A DNA stretch of 18,367 nucleotides from a virus: the UHGV virus genome UHGV-0120185. One strand, given 5' to 3'. The notes beneath the pieces are model-generated. The model had not been told where the DNA came from and searched no databases. It saw nothing but the letters and a program-made list of their open reading frames with translations. Positions 8,281 to 18,214 of this stretch are shown here, piece after piece. Each line of letters starts with the position of its first letter. The first letter of the stretch is position 1. Position numbers and translations under genes: made by a program.

Positions 8281-8619
8281 CTATAGCTTTGATGCAGGCT
8301 GGGCTAGGTCTCCTTTGATGCCAGTGTTTACAACCTGACAAGCCTCTTTGAGTACCCAGTCAACAGCGTCTTTCCATGCTCCGGTTTCGGCTGGCGGATT
8401 CTCACGCTTTACCAGTTCATAGAATCGTACTGCTCTAACCAGTCCATCTGACGGTTTTGCCTGTAGTGCAGCCTGAGCTATGCGGTATGCCTGGAGCATA
8501 CGGGCGTCGTTGATATCCATTCCGAACGGAATTTCTGATGATTGTGATTCTGCATCTTCAAGCCTGGCAATTTCTTTACGTAAAAAGTATTTCAACTCTT
8601 GTTTTTGTTTTCTGTTCAT
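8281..8619 (-). CDS. hypothetical protein (112 aa), partner of the ClpX-zinc-ribbon-like protein
   Basis: ATG overlaps the upstream gene's stop (ATGA), followed by the terminator. No family recognised. Confidence 0.55.
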
Positions 8620-8948
8620 GCGTTTTTTCCCTTTTTGTCTGTCACTTCTCTCCTGATAATTTCATTGCACAAATCCACGCACTCATTGCAGATGCAAACA
8701 GACGGTCCGGCAATCACCTTTGTGACTTCGTACTGAGATTTATTGCAGAAGCTGCAATAAATCGTCTCCTCGCCTGAAGTCCATGTTTTGCTGGTTTCGC
8801 CAGACATCAGTTGTTTGAGGTCTTTTTCACGACGAAGAACTATCTGGCCACATTCAGCTATTTTTTGGATGTTGACATTTTCTTCTTTCGCCAGCGCTTC
8901 CATCCGCTCAATCAGTCGCTGCGCTTTTTCTCTGTCAATGTGTTGCAT
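8616..8948 (-). CDS. small protein with C-terminal ClpX N-terminal-type C4 zinc-ribbon domain
   Basis: C-terminal '[39 protein letters not shown]' versus ClpX N-domain '[39 protein letters not shown]' as recalled (about 30/40 identical, all four Zn-ligand Cys kept). N-terminal ~60 aa unrelated and helical. RBS AAGGGGG before ATG at 8948. Confidence 0.75.
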
Positions 8949-9011: not shown

Positions 9012-9323
9012 TTATTCGGGAAATAACGCCCTGATATTTCCGGCCATCCGACTGGTTATCTGTGAGGTTGGTACTGGCTGTGACGCGGGGCGTTCTGTCC
9101 TGGTTTGTGTCACTGATAACGCCTCATCGTCAGCCCATGCAGCCAGTCGGTAAGCCTCTGCCGGATTCATTTTCAGAAGTGCCAGCCCGGCCAGAAAAGC
9201 CACACGTTGGCCGCTTTTGCGGGCTTCTGGTGTAAGGCTGTCCAGCCAGGTGCATGCTTCGCCTTCGTTCTTGACGGCGGCGGGCTTCAGATAGAAACTT
9301 ATCCGTCTGGTTGGTGTCGTCAT
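9012..9323 (-). CDS. parR: ParR-like centromere-binding protein (type II partition)
   Basis: 103 aa from internal Met 4 nt after the parM stop, RBS AAGGAG. 'RRISFYLKP...LDSL...RVAFLAGLALLKMNP...NIRALFPE' parallels plasmid R1 ParR as recalled. Confidence 0.7.
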   Translation of the reverse strand: MTTPTRRISFYLKPAAVKNEGEACTWLDSLTPEARKSGQRVAFLAGLALLKMNPAEAYRLAAWADDEALSVTQTRTERPASQPVPTSQITSRMAGNIRALFPE

Positions 9324-9327
9324 TGGT

Positions 9328-10287
9328 TTACTCCTTGTCCATTGCGTACAGCCCATTAACCAGAGCAAACTGTGGCACCCCGTCCGCGATGAAAGTCGCA
9401 TTAACTCCGCAGGCTTCGCGGATAGCGGGTGCCACAATCTCCGCCCCGCCACCGACAACCATCACCCGCCCGTAACCCGAAAAACCCGCCAGCGCGCGGA
9501 TCACTCGTTGTTTCAGTGTTTCTTCCTTTTCACGAATAACCGCCATCAGGCTGTCGTAATGCGCGTCATTGTGGATGTGCTGGCGCAGCCAGGCTTCATC
9601 ATGGCGATGTTCGATAATGGTATTGGCGATGTGGTGACTGGTGCGCATACCGTTAGTGGCCATCACCGACAGTACGGCATCGGCCATCAGAGAAACGCCT
9701 ACGTGTGGATCGCAAAACACCTGGCTGATACCTGCCAGTTGCCCCTGAACCTTTGCCACATCCAGCGTGGTTCCGCCCAAATCCACAATCAGCAGGGATT
9801 CAAACGGACTCATGTCAGCCAGTGCCTTAAAGCCAGCCGGAATGGATTCAGGCATAACCCGCACGTTACGGATAGTGAATGCTTCGCCGTTCTGGTACTC
9901 CACCGGGCGCATAACGTTCGCTTTTTTGCGGTTGATGTTGGCCATGTCCGGCTGTGCGTTTGTGTCGAAATACTCGCTCAGTGGCAGGGTGACAACCACA
10001 TCCACCTCCTGTGGCGTGATGCCTGATTTGACCAGCGCGTGATGAATGGCAATTACATTCACATCGCTGTACTGGTATTGCGTGTCGGTCGTCTGGACAA
10101 ATCGATCGCTGACCGGATCAAAACCATAGCGCACGCCATCAAGCATGTAGTTTGCGGGCTGCATGCCACCGAACGGCGCAGACCATTCCGATTTGAAGCT
10201 GTTCGGGCTGATGGCGTTGCGGCGTTCGCCGTTCTCAGTCCATGCCAGCTTGATGTTGGTGGAGCCGTCGTCGATACAAATTTTCAT
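9328..10287 (-). CDS. parM: ParM-like actin-type partition ATPase
   Basis: 'MKICIDDGSTNIKLAW', 'YQYSDVNVIAIHHAL', 'RKKANV', 'VMPESIPAGF', 'LLIVDLGGTTLDV', 'VMVVGGGAE', 'ALVNGLY' are collinear with plasmid R1 ParM/StbA as recalled. RBS AAGGA before ATG. Confidence 0.9.
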   Translation of the reverse strand: MKICIDDGSTNIKLAWTENGERRNAISPNSFKSEWSAPFGGMQPANYMLDGVRYGFDPVSDRFVQTTDTQYQYSDVNVIAIHHALVKSGITPQEVDVVVTLPLSEYFDTNAQPDMANINRKKANVMRPVEYQNGEAFTIRNVRVMPESIPAGFKALADMSPFESLLIVDLGGTTLDVAKVQGQLAGISQVFCDPHVGVSLMADAVLSVMATNGMRTSHHIANTIIEHRHDEAWLRQHIHNDAHYDSLMAVIREKEETLKQRVIRALAGFSGYGRVMVVGGGAEIVAPAIREACGVNATFIADGVPQFALVNGLYAMDKE

Positions 10288-10316: not shown

Positions 10317-10429
10317 CGTTTACGGGGTTTTTAAATCCCGTTTTTGCCTGTTTTATGCGCGCTTCATATATCGCGGCGCGTTTTTTGCTCATTTACGGGT
10401 TTTGTGAATCCCGTTTCTGTCTGTTTTTT
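10317..10429. repeat. two ~38-bp direct repeats 73 bp apart, candidate parC-like centromere/operator
   Basis: Copy 1 at 10317-10354 (cgtttacggggtttttaaatcccgtttttgcctgtttt), copy 2 at 10390-10429 (catttacgggttttgtgaatcccgtttctgtctgtttttt), ~85% identical. Each holds an ACGGG...CCCGT hairpin. Copy 1 is in the A-parM gap, copy 2 inside the last codons of A. Confidence 0.5.
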
Positions 10430-13186
10430 GTTTCCACTGGTCAGGCTACCCCGCAGCAGGTCTGCTTTGCGGCGGGCGCGTTCAGTGGTTTCACTGATTC
10501 TCTGTGCGTGCTCTGCGTCACGGATGGCGCGCAGCATGTCAGAAAGCACGGTAACGGGGGTTTTCATGGTGTTCTGGTCCTGCTGAAGTGTGGATGCCAG
10601 GCGTGCGGCGGCTTCGGGGTCTGATGCCCCCAGCTGTTCCAGATAGCCGGCGACCGGGTTATGGCGGATCTCCGTGCTGCTTACGCCGTGATTACGGCTC
10701 AGGCGCTGCCAGAGCTGCGTGATTCGGCTGTCCGGGCGGGTATCCGGTTTGCGTACAATTTCAAATCCCTGCGGTGCAATGATGCTGCCGTCAACGTACA
10801 GGCTGCCGCCCCGTAACAGGTGCTGCATCTGCTGTTCACCGATATGCAGGCCGAGAGATTCGGCAGACTCCCGCCATTCTTTAGCGAGTAATTCGTGGTT
10901 ATCAGGCAAAGGCCGCTGCTGTTTGCGGCTCTGTGTCCAGCTCTGCATTTCATCACTGCTGTTTTTTGCCTGTTTATCATGAAGCGAACGCATCAGCGCC
11001 CGGCGTTCGTGCCGTTTCAGTGAGCGCATCCATTCGTTCACTTCAACGCCATCAGGGAGCTGCGGCCACGGTGCTGGCCGTTCTTCCGGCTGTTCTGCCC
11101 CGTTGTTGTTCGTTTCCTGTACACGGGGACAGTTATTGCCACGAGTCCAAGGGGCGGCAGGGCCGCCCTGAAGGTCAAAACCATTTTCGCGGGCGCTGTC
11201 TTCCGCTTCCGGTTTACGTCTTACCAGCTTCCAGTTATCCGGATGCGTGCACACACGGGAGGATTCCCCGATGAGTGGTGACCAGATCCCGTAAATCTGT
11301 ACGCTCTGTTCGCCGTAATCGTTCAGCTCATCTGCGAGGTCGTAGGCGGTGCGAATCAGGTAGTCCTTGCGCGGAACAAGTACGCCACCCTGTTTTTCAA
11401 TGTAGGTGGCAAAACACCCGGCATCAGCGGCAGCAAGAACCGCATCCATTGCGTCATCCTTCAGCCGTTGCGGGCCTTCCGGGCTGCGTGCCATCTGGCT
11501 GGCAAGGCGGCGGAGTTCACGCCACACCTGACGGGAGGGAATGCCAAAGAACTGGAACTGGCGGACCCGGTGAAGGCGCGCCCAGCCGATGGCGCGTTCC
11601 ACGCTCTCGGCCATTGATTTTCCGGTTTCGTGGTCAACGCGTGGTTTGCCTGTTTTCGGGTCGATGCCATCCACGGCCCGGCTGTCCAGGTTTTTTCCGA
11701 TGTAGGTCGCGATATAGCTGGTTGGTGTGCCTTTTGAGCCGTCGACATACTCCGCCTTAAAGCGCGGAGTAATATCATTGCCCAGCTCGTGGCGGTCTTC
11801 CTGAATGGCAATATCGCGGGTGATGGCCACGATGCTGTCGATTTCTTCCGGATGAGCAAAGACCATCATATGCCAGTGCACGGTGCCGTCATGGTGAGGC
11901 TCCACCGTGCGGATGCCATACCAGCGAAGACCGTCGCGGTTCAGTTTTTTGCGGACCGCCGCAAAAAACGTGTTAACCAGGTAATCGCTGGAGTCGCGCA
12001 TGGTGGCCCCGTTCCATCTGGGATTCGGATGACCGTTCTCCGTTGTGGCGTGGTATTTTGACGGGCAGGTGACAGTCAGAAACACCGCTTTGTCGCCACG
12101 GGCTTCAGCCAGAAGTTCCAGCCCCTTCATGGTGGCCATCATTTCTGCCTTACGGTGAACCGGGTTACTTACTCCCGCGTAATACACCGTCTCGAGATCA
12201 ATCGTGAACCCGTCTTCATTTTCCAGCATGAAACTTTTCAGGAAATCGCGTGTTTTCTCGCGCTGTGCGCGAAACTCGCTTAACGCGTCCTGGCTCAGAT
12301 AGGGCGATGTTTTTCTGGAAACCAGACAGGCGGCGCGGAGTTGTTCTTCTCTCCACTCGCAACGTAACAGCCACAGTTTGCGTTTCCACCATTCCGCACA
12401 GGTCAGGCGAAGGATTGCGCCCGGCAGCAGTTCTGTGTCCGGTTCGTGCCTCCGGTCTTTGTCTGTTGTCAGTGCGTCATAATGCGGAGGCATGGCGTGT
12501 AAGTGTAACGCCATGCGGGCCAGCATCTGATACGCCTTCAGCGTTACATCCATGGTCAGCTCGCCATCAGTCGCGCCAAAACCATCGCAGAGTTTTTCGA
12601 AGGTGCTGCTGAACATCGCCGCCGTCATGGTGGCCAGCGTCTGTATCTGGTGTTTGTTGAGTTGCGGCAGGTAAAGCAAATCGTCCAGGCGTTCACGTCC
12701 GGCAAGGGAGCGATAACCCGATGTCAGCCAGCGGTGATCGGTGCGCTCCAGACGTTCGAATATTTTGCGCAGGGTCCCACGCGCATAGCGTTCTGCCTGC
12801 CTGGCGTTTTTTCCTTTCTGACGATCGGCTTCCTGTTTTTTGCGCAGGAAGGAGAGGTGGCGAATAAGCGGATCGCGCAGATAGGACGGCAGCAGGCGCA
12901 GTGAGGCCATGGCCTCATCTACCGCGCCGCGTGCCTGTTTTCTGGCGTCTCCTGCCAGTGTGATTGTTTTGTCCTGTTTTTCCTGTGCGTCCAGGCTTTT
13001 ATTAATCAGGTTGCCCAGCGGCGTGGCGGAGAACGCCGCATCAGCCATTTCCTGGCGGCGCTCGTTCTCTGCCCGGTAGGCATCCAGCCAGGAGGAAAGC
13101 GCGGATTCAGGAGCGGGGATCCCCGTTCCTTCACGCCCCACTGCGTGGCGCGGTTGTTGCCAGTCCCTGATGTACTCTGCCGTCAT
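10364..13186 (-). CDS. A: P2 gpA-like rolling-circle replication initiator (HUH endonuclease)
   Basis: HUH motif 'VHWHMMVF' and twin-tyrosine motif 'SYIATYIGK'. 940 aa, position between early genes and the accessory locus as in P2. Confidence 0.85.
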   Translation of the reverse strand: MTAEYIRDWQQPRHAVGREGTGIPAPESALSSWLDAYRAENERRQEMADAAFSATPLGNLINKSLDAQEKQDKTITLAGDARKQARGAVDEAMASLRLLPSYLRDPLIRHLSFLRKKQEADRQKGKNARQAERYARGTLRKIFERLERTDHRWLTSGYRSLAGRERLDDLLYLPQLNKHQIQTLATMTAAMFSSTFEKLCDGFGATDGELTMDVTLKAYQMLARMALHLHAMPPHYDALTTDKDRRHEPDTELLPGAILRLTCAEWWKRKLWLLRCEWREEQLRAACLVSRKTSPYLSQDALSEFRAQREKTRDFLKSFMLENEDGFTIDLETVYYAGVSNPVHRKAEMMATMKGLELLAEARGDKAVFLTVTCPSKYHATTENGHPNPRWNGATMRDSSDYLVNTFFAAVRKKLNRDGLRWYGIRTVEPHHDGTVHWHMMVFAHPEEIDSIVAITRDIAIQEDRHELGNDITPRFKAEYVDGSKGTPTSYIATYIGKNLDSRAVDGIDPKTGKPRVDHETGKSMAESVERAIGWARLHRVRQFQFFGIPSRQVWRELRRLASQMARSPEGPQRLKDDAMDAVLAAADAGCFATYIEKQGGVLVPRKDYLIRTAYDLADELNDYGEQSVQIYGIWSPLIGESSRVCTHPDNWKLVRRKPEAEDSARENGFDLQGGPAAPWTRGNNCPRVQETNNNGAEQPEERPAPWPQLPDGVEVNEWMRSLKRHERRALMRSLHDKQAKNSSDEMQSWTQSRKQQRPLPDNHELLAKEWRESAESLGLHIGEQQMQHLLRGGSLYVDGSIIAPQGFEIVRKPDTRPDSRITQLWQRLSRNHGVSSTEIRHNPVAGYLEQLGASDPEAAARLASTLQQDQNTMKTPVTVLSDMLRAIRDAEHAQRISETTERARRKADLLRGSLTSGNKKQTETGFTKPVNEQKTRRDI

Positions 13187-15257: not shown

Positions 15258-15461
15258 TTAGCTGTTAGCCAAAGCGTCTTTTAACATCGCCACAAGGTTT
15301 ACTTCAGGCTTTTCCATTTTGGCGCGTTTGGGTCGGATAATAATTCGACCGTCAGCCAACATCTTTTTGCATGTATTAAGAGGGATACCTGTTATCTCTG
15401 CATATTTCTGCAGGGATACATAGGGGGCATTCACATTGATATTGATGGTTATACCTGACAT
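15258..15461 (-). CDS. Cox/Apl/AlpA-like small HTH excisionase-regulator
   Basis: 67 aa; 'LQKYAEITGIPLNTCKKMLADGRIIIRP' resembles the Cox/AlpA HTH. Early position in the operon divergent from the repressor, as P2 cox. Confidence 0.55.
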   Translation of the reverse strand: MSGITININVNAPYVSLQKYAEITGIPLNTCKKMLADGRIIIRPKRAKMEKPEVNLVAMLKDALANS

Positions 15462-15477: not shown

Positions 15478-15684
15478 TCAGGAAGATTTGTTTTGTTCTT
15501 TCTGGGTTAGCTCTAGGCCGCGAAGGAAGATCATGCGCGCCATGTTAGAGGATGAGCGTTGTTCTTTAGCTGCCATTTCATCAATGACGGCTCGCTCCTC
15601 GAGGGACAGCCGAAGTGCCAGTCTTGGACCTGTGGCGGTGTTACGCGGAATGCGTGATCTGGAATCGTGAAGAACTTGTTTCAT
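15478..15684 (-). CDS. small putative ribbon-helix-helix-like DNA-binding protein (68 aa), first gene of early operon
   Basis: 'LRLSLEERAVIDEMAAKEQRSSSNMARMIFLRGL' has an RHH-like beta-alpha-alpha pattern. Begins at the switch region. Confidence 0.45.
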   Translation of the reverse strand: MKQVLHDSRSRIPRNTATGPRLALRLSLEERAVIDEMAAKEQRSSSNMARMIFLRGLELTQKEQNKSS

Positions 15685-15759
15685 AGTGGTATATTGTGAT
15701 CATCTAATAGCTCGTGAAATCATTTTGGTATCAAAAAAGATACCTGTCAAGGTTTTTGT
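15685..15759. promoter_or_regulatory. lysis-lysogeny switch region with divergent promoters and operator-like palindromes
   Basis: 75-bp gap between divergent genes. Palindrome GGTATC-N6-GATACC at 15727-15744; TGATCA at 15697-15702; TATATT at 15690-15695; TTGACA on the minus strand (15750-15745) next to the palindrome. Confidence 0.5.
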
Positions 15760-16164
15760 ATGAAAAATGATATTGGTCAGCGGTTGCGTGAGGAAAGGGA
15801 AAGATTGGGACTTAGTCAAGTTGCCATGAGCGACATTGGTGGAGTCAAAAAGCTAACTCAGCTTAGATATGAGAAAGGAGATAGCTTTCCTGATGCTGCG
15901 TATTTGGCAGCGCTGTCTCGTTTTGGCCTTGATGTTCAGTATGTTGTGTTGGGAATTCACTCACCTGAAACTTATAACGATGATGAGCAGGAGTTGATTA
16001 CTCGCTTTCGAGCAGCTTCGTTAGATGTGAAAAATGCGGTGATTGGGGCTTTAAAAGGTGCGATCAGTGAAAAGGAAACTCAGCCATCAGGACGTGAGTT
16101 AAATATTTCTGGTGGTAATAACCGTATCGCTGGTCGTGACTATAACGAAACTAAGGGTAGGTGA
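15760..16164 (+). CDS. XRE-family HTH immunity repressor (C/CI-equivalent)
   Basis: N-terminal HTH 'RLREERERLGLSQVAMSDIGGVKKLTQLRYEKGDSFPDAAYLAALSRFGLDV'. Divergent from the Cox-like gene and upstream of int, as P2 C. Confidence 0.8.
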   Translation: MKNDIGQRLREERERLGLSQVAMSDIGGVKKLTQLRYEKGDSFPDAAYLAALSRFGLDVQYVVLGIHSPETYNDDEQELITRFRAASLDVKNAVIGALKGAISEKETQPSGRELNISGGNNRIAGRDYNETKGR

Positions 16165-16179
16165 TAGTAGGGAGGTGAC

Positions 16180-16830
16180 ATGGCCGTCAACTCAAACGGT
16201 TCAAACAATCGCGTTGCTGGGCGTGATTTTCACGAAAAGAATATTCAGATAGAGCGATATGATGGTTCTCAGACCGTCAATATCGCAATCCCTTCGAATA
16301 ATGATGATGACGATCGCCCTTTGCTTAAGGCTCAGCGTAAGGAGCTAAATAGCTTGGTTGCTGCTATTGCAGAAGCTAGCAATACTGAAGCGTTTATTAT
16401 TTGGCAAAAAGTACATGCGGAGATTGGTGTAGCTGGTATTGATGATATGACAGTAAATCAATATAAAACAGCGGAGAGTTTTCTGCATGCAATGCTTGAG
16501 CGATGTAAAGATCATGATGCCTGTAAGGCTCTTGTAAGTTTATTACTACGTAACAGTGAAGACTGTGGACTTCGACAAAAACTTCTGCGGTATTGCCATA
16601 TCAATTTCGGTACAGGACGTTTAAACGATCTTACTCGTTCTCAGTTACAGTCTGCATTGTCGTGGTTAGAGCAACAATCGGCATCAAGCCACACAGAGAG
16701 TTCGACCTTACCAGAAGTCCGACTTCGTGCTTCAGAATTAATCCGACTTTATCCAAAAGAAATAATATTCTTTATCTGCGTAGGGGTTTTGGTAGGCGGT
16801 GTCATTTCTAGGGCGTTTTTTAATTTGTAA
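16180..16830 (+). CDS. tail-anchored membrane protein of unknown function (216 aa), lysogeny-operon moron
   Basis: Strong RBS GGGAGG before ATG. Single C-terminal TM 'IIFFICVGVLVGGVISRAFF'; acidic DDDD stretch. N-terminus repeats the repressor C-terminal motif. AT-rich relative to the backbone. Confidence 0.65.
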   Translation: MAVNSNGSNNRVAGRDFHEKNIQIERYDGSQTVNIAIPSNNDDDDRPLLKAQRKELNSLVAAIAEASNTEAFIIWQKVHAEIGVAGIDDMTVNQYKTAESFLHAMLERCKDHDACKALVSLLLRNSEDCGLRQKLLRYCHINFGTGRLNDLTRSQLQSALSWLEQQSASSHTESSTLPEVRLRASELIRLYPKEIIFFICVGVLVGGVISRAFFNL

Positions 16831-16859: not shown

Positions 16860-17207
16860 ATGAAAGTAAAAAAGGTTCAACTATTAGTTACTTTTTTATC
16901 TATGTTTTCTTTTTCCGCCGTCGCAATGCCTTTTAAAACTATTGAACGTGAGAGTTTCAATGGGGTATGGCCATTTAATACTGATGAGGTTCAATTACAG
17001 TGTCTTGATGGTAATCCTTATGTGATGAATTTTGACGATAATAAGTTATATGCACTTACAGGTTTGGCTCGAATAAAAGGTAAAACATTTGGTGCGTTAC
17101 CGTTAGATAACAATAATCCATTTTGGCTAGATAATGATGCCGCCCCAGGGTTAAAAAAGAGTCTGGGGGATGTCACTAAGGCTGCATTTGATTTATGTGA
17201 TAAGTAA
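16860..17207 (+). CDS. secreted/periplasmic small protein of unknown function (115 aa), lysogeny-operon moron
   Basis: Signal peptide 'MKVKKVQLLVTFLSMFSFSAVA' with an AVA cleavage site; two Cys in the mature part. RBS GAGGT. Very AT-rich. Confidence 0.65.
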   Translation: MKVKKVQLLVTFLSMFSFSAVAMPFKTIERESFNGVWPFNTDEVQLQCLDGNPYVMNFDDNKLYALTGLARIKGKTFGALPLDNNNPFWLDNDAAPGLKKSLGDVTKAAFDLCDK

Positions 17208-17212
17208 CTAAA

Positions 17213-18214
17213 ATGTCGGTTCGTAAGATTCCATCAGGTAAATGGCTTTGCGAATGTTATCCCTACGGGGCATCGGGAAAACGCATTCGTAAACAGTTTG
17301 CGACAAAAAGTGAGGCGCTCTCTTATGAGCGCCGTTTAATGAATAGTAGAGTTGGAGACGAGTTTCAAGATGGTTCTGGTCCTCGTCTTTCTGAGTTGAT
17401 TGCTCGTTGGTTTGAGATGTACGGTAAAACCTTGTCCTCTGGTGCAGAGCGCAAAGTCAAACTTGAGGCGATTTGTTCCAGGCTGGGAGATCCATTTGCT
17501 TCTCAGTTTGACAAAAATATGTTTGCTACTTATCGGGAAAGAAGGCTATCAGGAGAATGGAATCCCAAGGGGAAGAAAAAACTTAGTGAAGCAACCGTTA
17601 ATCGCGAGCAGTCATATCTACATGCTGTTTTTGCCGAACTGAAGCGCCTTGGGGAGTGGTCTGGTGAAAACCCCCTGACTGGTATTCGCAAGTTTCGTGA
17701 GGAAGAAAAGGAACTGGCGTTTCTGTATGTAGATGAGATTGAACGCCTTCTGATTGCGTGTGATGAGTCACGGAATAAAGATTTGGGGGTTGTTGTCCGT
17801 ATTGGGCTTGCGACGGGTGCTCGGTGGAGTGAAGCAGAAGGATTAAAGCAATCTCAAGTACTGCCCGGTCGAATCACATTTGTTAAAACTAAAGGAAAGA
17901 AGAACCGCACTGTACCGATTTCACCTCAATTGCAGGCTATGCTTCCTAAAAAACGAGGAGCGCTATTTTCACCATGTTATGAGGCTTTTGACGCTGCAAT
18001 TAAGAGAGCGAAGATCGAGCTTCCTGATGGGCAATTAACTCATGTGCTACGTCACACGTTTGCCAGTCATTTTATGATGCGGGGCGGAAATATTCTTGTG
18101 TTGCAAAAAATACTGGGGCATAGCGATATAAAAATGACTATGCGTTATGCGCATTTTGCTCCAGGTCATTTAGAGGCTGCTGTTGAATTGAACCCTTTTG
18201 ACAATAGAGGGTAA
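17213..18214 (+). CDS. int: P2-type tyrosine integrase
   Basis: 'LATGARWSEA', 'FVKTKGKKNRTVPIS', 'HVLRHTFASHFMMRGGNILVLQKILGHSDIKMTMRYAHFAP', 'LNP' match the P2 Int catalytic region as recalled (R, H-x-x-R, Y). Confidence 0.92.
   Translation: MSVRKIPSGKWLCECYPYGASGKRIRKQFATKSEALSYERRLMNSRVGDEFQDGSGPRLSELIARWFEMYGKTLSSGAERKVKLEAICSRLGDPFASQFDKNMFATYRERRLSGEWNPKGKKKLSEATVNREQSYLHAVFAELKRLGEWSGENPLTGIRKFREEEKELAFLYVDEIERLLIACDESRNKDLGVVVRIGLATGARWSEAEGLKQSQVLPGRITFVKTKGKKNRTVPISPQLQAMLPKKRGALFSPCYEAFDAAIKRAKIELPDGQLTHVLRHTFASHFMMRGGNILVLQKILGHSDIKMTMRYAHFAPGHLEAAVELNPFDNRG

Follow-up and report, generated by a model that had tools for sequence, protein, structure and literature searches.

Why do the repressor of a prophage and the membrane protein encoded directly downstream of it carry the same short peptide, one at its C-terminus and the other at its N-terminus? 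The question is raised by UHGV virus genome UHGV-0120185, a DNA stretch of 18,367 nucleotides (the window, used below for this whole stretch) that is part of a P2-like Escherichia coli prophage. A first-pass annotation had pointed out the shared peptide and had attributed it to selection on the peptide, not to a recent DNA duplication. Comparison of the locus with its relatives indicates that the motif is kept at the peptide level and that both copies change version together from one lineage to another. We judge it evenly balanced whether the two copies are matched interaction tags that bind each other directly, by whatever mode. The features concerned are the following.

15760-16164, + strand: helix-turn-helix protein and presumed immunity repressor, an open reading frame (ORF) of 134 residues, first in its operon
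16099-16149, + strand: motif copy 1, LNISGGNNRIAGRDYNE, repressor residues 114-130 (L114-E130)
16150-16161, + strand: basic extreme C-terminus of the repressor, TKGR, not common to the membrane protein
16162-16179, + strand: gene junction, TGA TAG TAG followed by GGAGG, four bases and ATG, with 15 nucleotides between the genes
16180-16830, + strand: tail-anchored membrane protein of 216 residues, second in the operon, comprising the motif region, a Flk_N helical domain and a C-terminal transmembrane helix
16186-16236, + strand: motif copy 2, VNSNGSNNRVAGRDFHE, membrane-protein residues 3-19 (V3-E19)
16249-16290, + strand: degenerate second motif copy of the membrane protein, IERYDGSQTVNIAI, residues 24-37, 15 residues after the first; a weak assignment
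16312-16695, + strand: Flk_N helical domain, about residues 45-172, predicted as five helices by AlphaFold2 with a predicted local distance difference test score (pLDDT) of 91-95, and matched by the NCBIfam Flk model
16753-16821, + strand: predicted C-terminal transmembrane anchor, residues 192-214, a helix in the AlphaFold2 model with a Kyte-Doolittle 19-residue maximum of 2.36 at residue 195

Both peptides were found where the first-pass annotation had placed them, at 16099-16149 and 16186-16236. LNISGGNNRIAGRDYNE and VNSNGSNNRVAGRDFHE align without gaps, and the I/V and Y/F differences between them are conservative replacements. The motif is indeed shared, although the number of identical positions is 10 of 17 and not the approximately 11 of 17 first reported. 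The BLOSUM62 local score of the pair is 62, whereas shuffled sequences average 29 ± 4.7 and reach 56 at most (n=5000; p ~6e-5 from a Gumbel fit). A motif profile built from 50 motif instances detects only these two sites in all six frames of the window, with 37.7 and 34.8 bits, the next best site scoring 7 bits. In the DNA, a repeat search returns a 34-nucleotide direct repeat with 74% identity and a spacing of 87 nucleotides, and the nucleotide identity over the 17 aligned codons is 59%.

The two copies had also been said to encode identical residues by different synonymous codons, and this is the case at 6 of the 10 identical residues (aat/aac twice, aac/aat, cgt/cgc, ggt/ggg and gac/gat). 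The same pattern extends to 26 cognate pairs, in which 131 of 239 identical residues (55%) differ in codon and the mean nucleotide identity of the motif is 59%. Synonymous sites are thus near saturation, which excludes a recent duplication or gene conversion; such an event would have left near-identical DNA somewhere, and none was seen. The codon data from these 26 pairs bear out the earlier attribution to the peptide, and on this comparison the motif is under long-term peptide-level selection.

Two further candidates were rejected. Read-through or frameshift fusion of the two proteins is contradicted by the three consecutive stops at the junction and by frames and spacings that differ among loci. 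The repressor and membrane-protein genes share one reading frame in the window, and the TGA TAG TAG between them means that no fusion protein is made by read-through; elsewhere the gene pair overlaps by 4 nucleotides or is separated by gaps of 0 to 74 nucleotides, with no conserved frame relation. A function of the repeat as RNA or DNA does not agree with copies that are direct and not inverted, that have 59% nucleotide identity and that are conserved at the peptide level.

The adjacency of the genes in the window, in the same frame and 15 nucleotides apart, could also mark a functionless scar of gene fission or of a local duplication at the junction, and MAFFT places the repressor tails on the membrane-protein motif as if the two were homologous. 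Such a leftover is nevertheless extremely improbable. The peptide is kept while synonymous sites approach saturation, and within a tail that otherwise varies, the motif is conserved best. It is retained in Gamma- and Betaproteobacteria, with dissimilar partners and on two phage backbones. Finally, no fused ancestor-like protein was found among the 177 representative clusters, the only ones returned when 1.84 billion proteins were searched with a profile of the membrane-protein family.

We then compared the homologues of both genes. Among the matches listed, 120 of 120 membrane-protein homologues carry the motif at the N-terminus, with the consensus M-x-V-N-S-x-G-x-x-N-R-x-[AS]-G-R-D-[FY]-x-E. 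Most of the closer repressor homologues among the matches listed, chiefly from Enterobacterales and with about 50-80% identity, carry it at the C-terminus. The tail consensus of the enterobacterial homologues is [IV]-N-[IV]-[ST]-G-x-G-[NH]-R-[VI]-A-G-R-D-[YF]-x-E, mostly followed by x-K-K; the linker that precedes it varies, so that the motif is the best-kept segment of this region. All 80 membrane-protein loci found in IMG/VR, representing 39 distinct sequence combinations, have a motif-tailed repressor ending 9-18 nucleotides upstream, and the same gene arrangement occurs in Salmonella and Yersinia chromosomes. The motif is thus kept in homologous gene pairs, a point on which the first-pass annotation had made its proposal depend. 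Among the 177 clusters, chromosomal Flk proteins lack the motif, and most of the remaining shorter, non-Flk forms begin with a variant of it. In 50,697 phage records the module is present only in Escherichia phage 520873, where the membrane gene is unannotated. The tblastn match to the membrane protein in this phage (NC_049344.1, 2459-3065) falls into three pieces, which suggests frameshifts or a pseudogene.

A scan with the repressor profile, using one genome per species, returned 80 loci. Comparison of the repressor tail with the N-terminus of the protein encoded by the next ORF gives scores of at least 33 at 33 loci and of at most 30 at the other 42 loci evaluated. The low-scoring loci are mostly tail-less Pseudomonas paralogues that adjoin a response-regulator gene and have no matching neighbour. 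The motif itself exists in several versions, found in P2-like and Mu-like prophages of Gamma- and Betaproteobacteria, and in each lineage the repressor tail and the N-terminus of its neighbour share one version, as in the following loci.

L017 (Jeongeupia): repressor tail YGNAQIGQASAGDIVN, next protein N-terminus FGGAQIDQAAAGDINN
L013 (Pectobacterium): repressor tail QIFNGDISGQFAGNQIIN, next protein N-terminus QEFNGTAQGQFSSRDIIN
L085: repressor tail VIHGDVLGNVIKGDVT, next protein N-terminus VNGDVGNVVSGDVT
L028 (Ectopseudomonas): repressor tail QQFNGPVGSVTSGDVVN, next protein N-terminus QQFNGAVEQVAAGDIKN
L025 (Thiothrix): repressor tail VIHGEVGQSFGD, next protein N-terminus EIQGDVGQVFAGD

In a 27 x 27 matrix of distant lineages, cognate pairs have a mean score of 45 and non-cognate pairs of 27, and none of 20000 permutations reached the observed sum (p < 5e-5). 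The co-variation persists in 20 pairs once near-duplicate lineages are dropped. Alignment of homologues, which had been put forward as a check on whether the motif co-varies, thus answers positively between lineages, where both copies switch together.

Several observations weigh against direct binding between the two copies. When pairs of one motif type are compared, the cognate partner ranks first in only 7-9 of 20 cases, and the enterobacterial type showed no fine-scale, position-by-position co-variation. After NR, the repressor retains V or I at the variable position, which changes freely in the membrane protein. The co-variation therefore sits at the level of motif versions. No repressor-partner fusion was present among the top 120 matches of either search, nor in the 177 representative clusters, so that support of the "Rosetta stone" kind is lacking; the 270-residue protein P0385 matches the Flk_N profile in part (residues 99-177) and has an unrelated N-terminal region. 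Some carriers are also unpaired. The motif-bearing Flk_N proteins of L086 and L087 have no matching upstream tail, the systematic scan gives no match above threshold for the G/N/Q/V-rich repressor tails of L004, L012, L016, L027 and L031, and L029 has no convincing partner. The motif may thus also work alone.

Flk_N proteins such as those of L086 and L087, and tailed repressors with no detectable partner, would be expected if the motif served the oligomerisation of each protein separately, for tetramerisation or cooperativity of the repressor and for clustering of the membrane protein, with no cross-talk between the two. The resemblance would then reflect common origin and common structural constraints. 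Many temperate-phage repressors do require C-terminal oligomerisation elements. However, identical motifs made from the same operon in the same cytoplasm would be expected to cross-react. If this cross-reaction were harmful it should drive the copies apart, whereas they stay matched while both drift between lineages, and they occur together in 80 of 80 viral contigs. We therefore consider independent self-association quite unlikely.

The repressor comprises an XRE-type helix-turn-helix domain (residues 1-65), two helices (residues 74-105) and a tail that is disordered in the AlphaFold2 model (residues 105-134). The pLDDT is above 89 for residues 11-60 and below 50 for residues 105-128. The protein has Pfam matches to HTH_31/HTH_3 that fall short of the curated cut-offs, and it matches phrog_8/4/3, which are transcriptional regulator or repressor families. 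It is presumed to be the immunity repressor from its position and its family, since, in the position of P2 C, its gene opens the int operon with a cox-like gene running divergently, and since it has a helix-turn-helix domain. Pfam gives no Peptidase_S24 match, and the chain stops 30 residues past the last helix; with no C-terminal S24 peptidase domain, this is not a self-cleaving repressor of the LexA/CI type. Neither fold nor sequence searches returned a solved structure like the repressor.

The membrane protein matches phrog_5825 (E-value 7e-103), and its homologues carry the precomputed Pfam assignment PF27202, Flk_N. The NCBIfam Flk model NF007987 matches residues 35-166 with 58 bits (E-value 8e-16) against a cut-off of 353 bits, so that the phage protein is not Flk itself. 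Its earlier designation as a membrane protein holds and can be made more exact, as a tail-anchored Flk_N-domain protein. Fold and sequence searches found no relative of it among solved structures. Residues 1-40 have a pLDDT below 50 in AlphaFold2 run with an alignment. Both motif copies thus have a pLDDT below 50 and flank confidently folded domains; they are predicted to lie in segments that are disordered in the monomer and do not fold alone, as expected of segments that become ordered only upon binding.

Further copies of the motif occur in some partners. MAFFT places the single motif of other lineages on the second-copy segment IERYDGSQTVNIAI of the membrane protein, and relatives such as L018 and P0265 clearly repeat the GRD motif, exactly 15 residues further on. 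The second copy in the window would then have decayed, although its assignment is weak. Of about 147 Flk_N representatives, 11 carry the motif twice, in most cases at a distance of exactly 15 residues. The cognate repressors examined for these two-copy proteins carry one copy, and most lineages are single-copy. A tandem pseudorepeat, such as NKVAGRDFYEENTKINQFVGRDLVNI, is seen at the N-termini of P0265, P0266, P0268, P0272, P0278, P0306 and others. A separate resemblance was observed at L086 (2-944), between an additional helix at the N-terminus of the Flk_N protein P0299, DERLARLAELL, and DSDRLARIVDLL in the upstream ORF; another branch of the family may thus have a shared segment of a different kind.

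The N-terminal motif is found on at least five otherwise dissimilar partner architectures, four of which are membrane proteins.

Flk_N domain with C-terminal anchor: in the window, and also in Gilliamella, Pectobacterium, Pseudomonas and Bordetella
Predicted coiled-coil proteins of 260-325 residues that have a single hydrophobic segment and a C-terminal region containing Cys
Two kinds of small proteins with two hydrophobic segments (two-helix membrane proteins)
A few soluble forms

L025 adds a partner of 57 residues with a single hydrophobic segment. The phage backbones differ as well. Mu-type neighbours such as a Ner-like gene are present at L005, L017, L021 and L050, with the transposase confirmed in L005, and an rve-family transposase gene lies near the pair at L085. 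Apart from the pair itself, no phage-encoded neighbour is kept across P2-like and Mu-like contexts. This constancy of the pair points to a self-contained two-gene unit and away from a conserved third phage protein encoded in the vicinity.

Direct pairing of the two copies fits these results best, because the lineage versions are matched, the co-occurrence is strict, the motif is portable on the partner side and both segments are disordered in the monomer models. The first tag would be the disordered C-terminal tail of the repressor, and the second an N-terminal extension, disordered and cytoplasmic, of the membrane-anchored protein that is translated next from the operon. The copies would pair directly, like with like, possibly through β-strands, and this pairing would physically couple the repressor to its membrane partner. 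As an output, part of the repressor pool might be held or sensed at the membrane, or else the state of the repressor might gate the activity of the membrane protein.

The same termini could instead be recognised by a shared third partner, with no contact between the two proteins. This factor might be a protease or unfoldase for which the motif is a degron (ClpXP, Lon or FtsH), or a phage regulator, and the two proteins would then share their degradation or control, or would compete. Degrons tend to be disordered chain ends, a description that fits both copies. Basic residues close the repressor tails, as TKGR in the window and, in homologues, as endings such as NKK, KKK and RKRK; this basic C-terminus may resemble the basic C-terminal signals of ClpX. 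The module occurs in Mu-like prophages, and the ClpXP determinant of the Mu repressor, as cited in a passage of PMC10584840, provides a precedent. The window also encodes, at 8616-8948 on the - strand, a 110-residue protein that consists of little beyond a ClpX-type C4 zinc finger. In this protein, the zinc finger is matched by Pfam with an E-value of 3e-16 and by NCBIfam ClpX at positions 6-52. The protein could interfere with substrate or adaptor binding by ClpX, which would bear on a degron reading of the basic tail.

A degron common to both proteins is weakened by the high conservation of host proteases, since these would not drive matched, lineage-specific versions of the motif. The membrane protein also lacks the basic end, the part of the tail most like a degron. 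In addition, the known N- and C-terminal signals of ClpX differ, whereas the same sequence is found here at both kinds of terminus. The lack of any other constant neighbour of the pair in P2-like and Mu-like contexts speaks against a phage-encoded third partner. Among the functions tentatively suggested in the first-pass annotation (an interaction, cleavage or degron element), the data thus favour an interaction over a shared host degron, and we regard recognition by a third partner as unlikely.

A particular form of direct pairing is amyloid-type signalling, in which clustered repressor tails would adopt a cross-β form, template the motif of the membrane protein and switch this partner on; the switch might abort the infection or damage the membrane. 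The layout agrees with this, as a motif of about 17-25 residues is present at the termini of adjacent-gene products, one of them membrane-targeted. The known BASS motifs are about 25 residues long, fall into several families, lie at the termini of proteins from adjacent genes, are enriched in Q, N, G, V and I and are depleted in K, P and L (bioRxiv 10.1101/2020.01.06.895854). The motif set studied here is likewise enriched in N (2.5x), Q (2.3x), G (2.2x) and V (1.7x) and depleted in L (0.13x), P (0.40x) and K (0.45x), and its several lineage-specific families recall BASS1-11; isoleucine, however, is at 0.91x and not enriched. BASS and HET-s effectors have 2-3 pseudorepeats and their receptors one (bioRxiv 10.1101/2020.01.06.895854), and some presumed effectors of the present system carry two copies 15 residues apart whereas the repressor carries one. 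Prophage defence hotspots of E. coli also offer a precedent in Bab/Agp (BASS11), a defence system that works via a 20-residue shared motif (bioRxiv 10.1101/2024.11.07.622273).

Other properties do not agree with amyloid signalling. The receptor would be a small helix-turn-helix repressor and not an NLR or TPR sensor, and the orientation is reversed: the presumed sensor has the motif at its C-terminus, the presumed effector at its N-terminus. Instead of a Bell or HeLo domain, the partners have a Flk_N domain or transmembrane helices of the ordinary kind. The enterobacterial version is highly charged (R, R, D, E), and like charges would presumably lie on top of one another in an in-register parallel sheet. 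Since every lysogen presumably produces the two proteins at the same time, a self-propagating switch would need tight restraint. Templating of this kind seems unlikely to us. The immunity repressor might even be the sensor of an amyloid-like self-templating pair, in which a change in repressor state converts the partner and thereby kills the cell, blocks superinfection or triggers induction; this we hold to be improbable. Candidate triggers would be repressor clustering, dissociation of the repressor from DNA, or its sequestration by an anti-repressor of foreign origin, for instance the satellite P4 epsilon protein.

The locus is common in E. coli. The 1.5 kb around the motif pair matches several E. 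coli chromosomes at 100% identity and that of strain 55989 at 99.9%, and the locus was found in 521 of 5426 complete E. coli genomes. It adjoins yecA in E. coli 55989, where the two proteins are WP_000786769.1 and WP_000290355.1. The genes that accompany the pair are as follows.

16860-17207, + strand: DUF2511 protein, third in the operon
17213-18214, + strand: integrase, fourth in the operon
15478-15684, - strand: Arc-like gene (phrog_3431, E-value 3e-28), divergent from the repressor operon
15258-15461, - strand: Cox-like gene (phrog_575), divergent from the repressor operon

This layout matches P2 C-int with two extra genes inserted. The RefSeq record of E. coli 55989 (L168) omits the Arc-like ORF and annotates instead, in the same region, a 45-residue ORF on the + strand. 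A perfect palindrome, GGTATC-AAAAAA-GATACC, is located at 15727-15744, 16 nucleotides upstream of the repressor start codon, and is a candidate operator. On the - strand, a ParM/StbA actin-like segregation gene (9328-10287) and a Plasmid_stab_B gene (9012-9458) lie in a variable region, with the packaging genes on one side and the replication gene gpA on the other. Such plasmid-partition genes are unexpected given the integrase in the same prophage. The gpA-like replication protein (10364-13186, - strand, 940 residues) has a Phage_GPA domain at residues 179-503 only, and its approximately 440 C-terminal residues are without a family assignment. PADLOC recognised no known defence family in the membrane protein, in the DUF2511 protein or among the hotspot genes.

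Binding between the two tags would give the master switch of a common class of prophages a direct protein connection to the cell membrane. This could explain how repressors that lack a self-cleaving peptidase domain are controlled (P2 is not SOS-inducible), and how accessory membrane proteins made in lysogens are restrained. The motif would serve as a portable address label on dissimilar membrane proteins, and comparison of a repressor C-terminus with the N-terminus of the next gene's product gives a sequence rule for repressor-coupled effectors in any genome. Should the amyloid reading be true, amyloid signalling, so far known from NLR-type receptors, would also operate in the lysis-lysogeny switch of P2-like and Mu-like prophages. 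The module is small, with two genes and 17 residues, and is amenable to mutagenesis and motif swaps.

The pair shares features with several known systems. Flk (Fluke), a tail-anchored protein, inhibits the specificity switch of flagellar type III secretion (PMC13344023). The phage protein resembles it in its predicted Flk_N helical domain, C-terminal anchor and cytoplasm-facing topology. In contrast, chromosomal Flk has 330-430 residues, often two domain copies and a start in MQP, and carries neither the motif nor a repressor neighbour.

Accessory genes share an operon with the immunity repressor in lambda cI-rexA-rexB and in P2 C-int. The accessory genes of the window are, as in these lysogeny operons, presumably expressed in the lysogen, and some of the products are membrane proteins; we know of no report of a peptide shared between repressor and accessory protein in lambda or P2. 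The Mu repressor is degraded by ClpXP via a context-dependent, normally hidden C-terminal determinant, according to the passage of PMC10584840 that cites this work. By analogy, the flexible tail of the present repressor may be a regulatory element, as the C-terminal tail is in Mu. To our knowledge, no second Mu protein carries a copy of the repressor tail.

In Bacillus subtilis, SinR, a phage-repressor-like helix-turn-helix protein, is opposed by SinI, a small antagonist that copies its oligomerisation segment (and similarly SlrR by SlrA). Here too, the genes are adjacent, the C-terminal segment of an XRE-type repressor is copied in its neighbour, and by analogy a heteromer would form. However, the SinR/SinI segment is a helical hook, whereas the present one is G/N/Q-rich, predicted to be disordered and free of helix, with a composition typical of β-strands and turns. 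SinI is moreover small and cytosolic, while the partners here are mostly membrane-anchored and of several kinds. A closer SinI/SinR-like arrangement was observed in the same repressor family at L030 (4001-4600), where a 55-residue ORF that follows a tail-less repressor paralogue copies its C-terminal helix (EDKLVNQYRALADADKKAVHRIV versus DDERMLLTLYREMSEHDRRYIRRM).

The amyloid signalling pairs (fungal NWD2/HET-S, bacterial BASS1-10 Bell/NLR and Bab/Agp) share with the present pair a short terminal motif in the products of adjacent genes, the same composition bias, several motif families, occasional two-versus-one pseudorepeats and one partner acting at the membrane. The shared terminal motif of 17-25 residues was seen in the window and at more than 30 other loci. 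The amyloid pairs differ in having an NLR/STAND/TPR sensor with an N-terminal motif and a Bell/HeLo effector with a C-terminal motif; here a 134-residue helix-turn-helix repressor carries the motif C-terminally and a Flk_N or transmembrane partner carries it N-terminally. The enterobacterial motif is also strongly charged. As defining features of both SinR/SinI and the amyloid pairs are missing, we assign the pair to neither family. The literature searched contains no description of a motif pairing between a repressor and a membrane protein. A terminal motif shared by the products of adjacent genes is already known from other systems; that a prophage repressor shares one with membrane proteins appears to be new.

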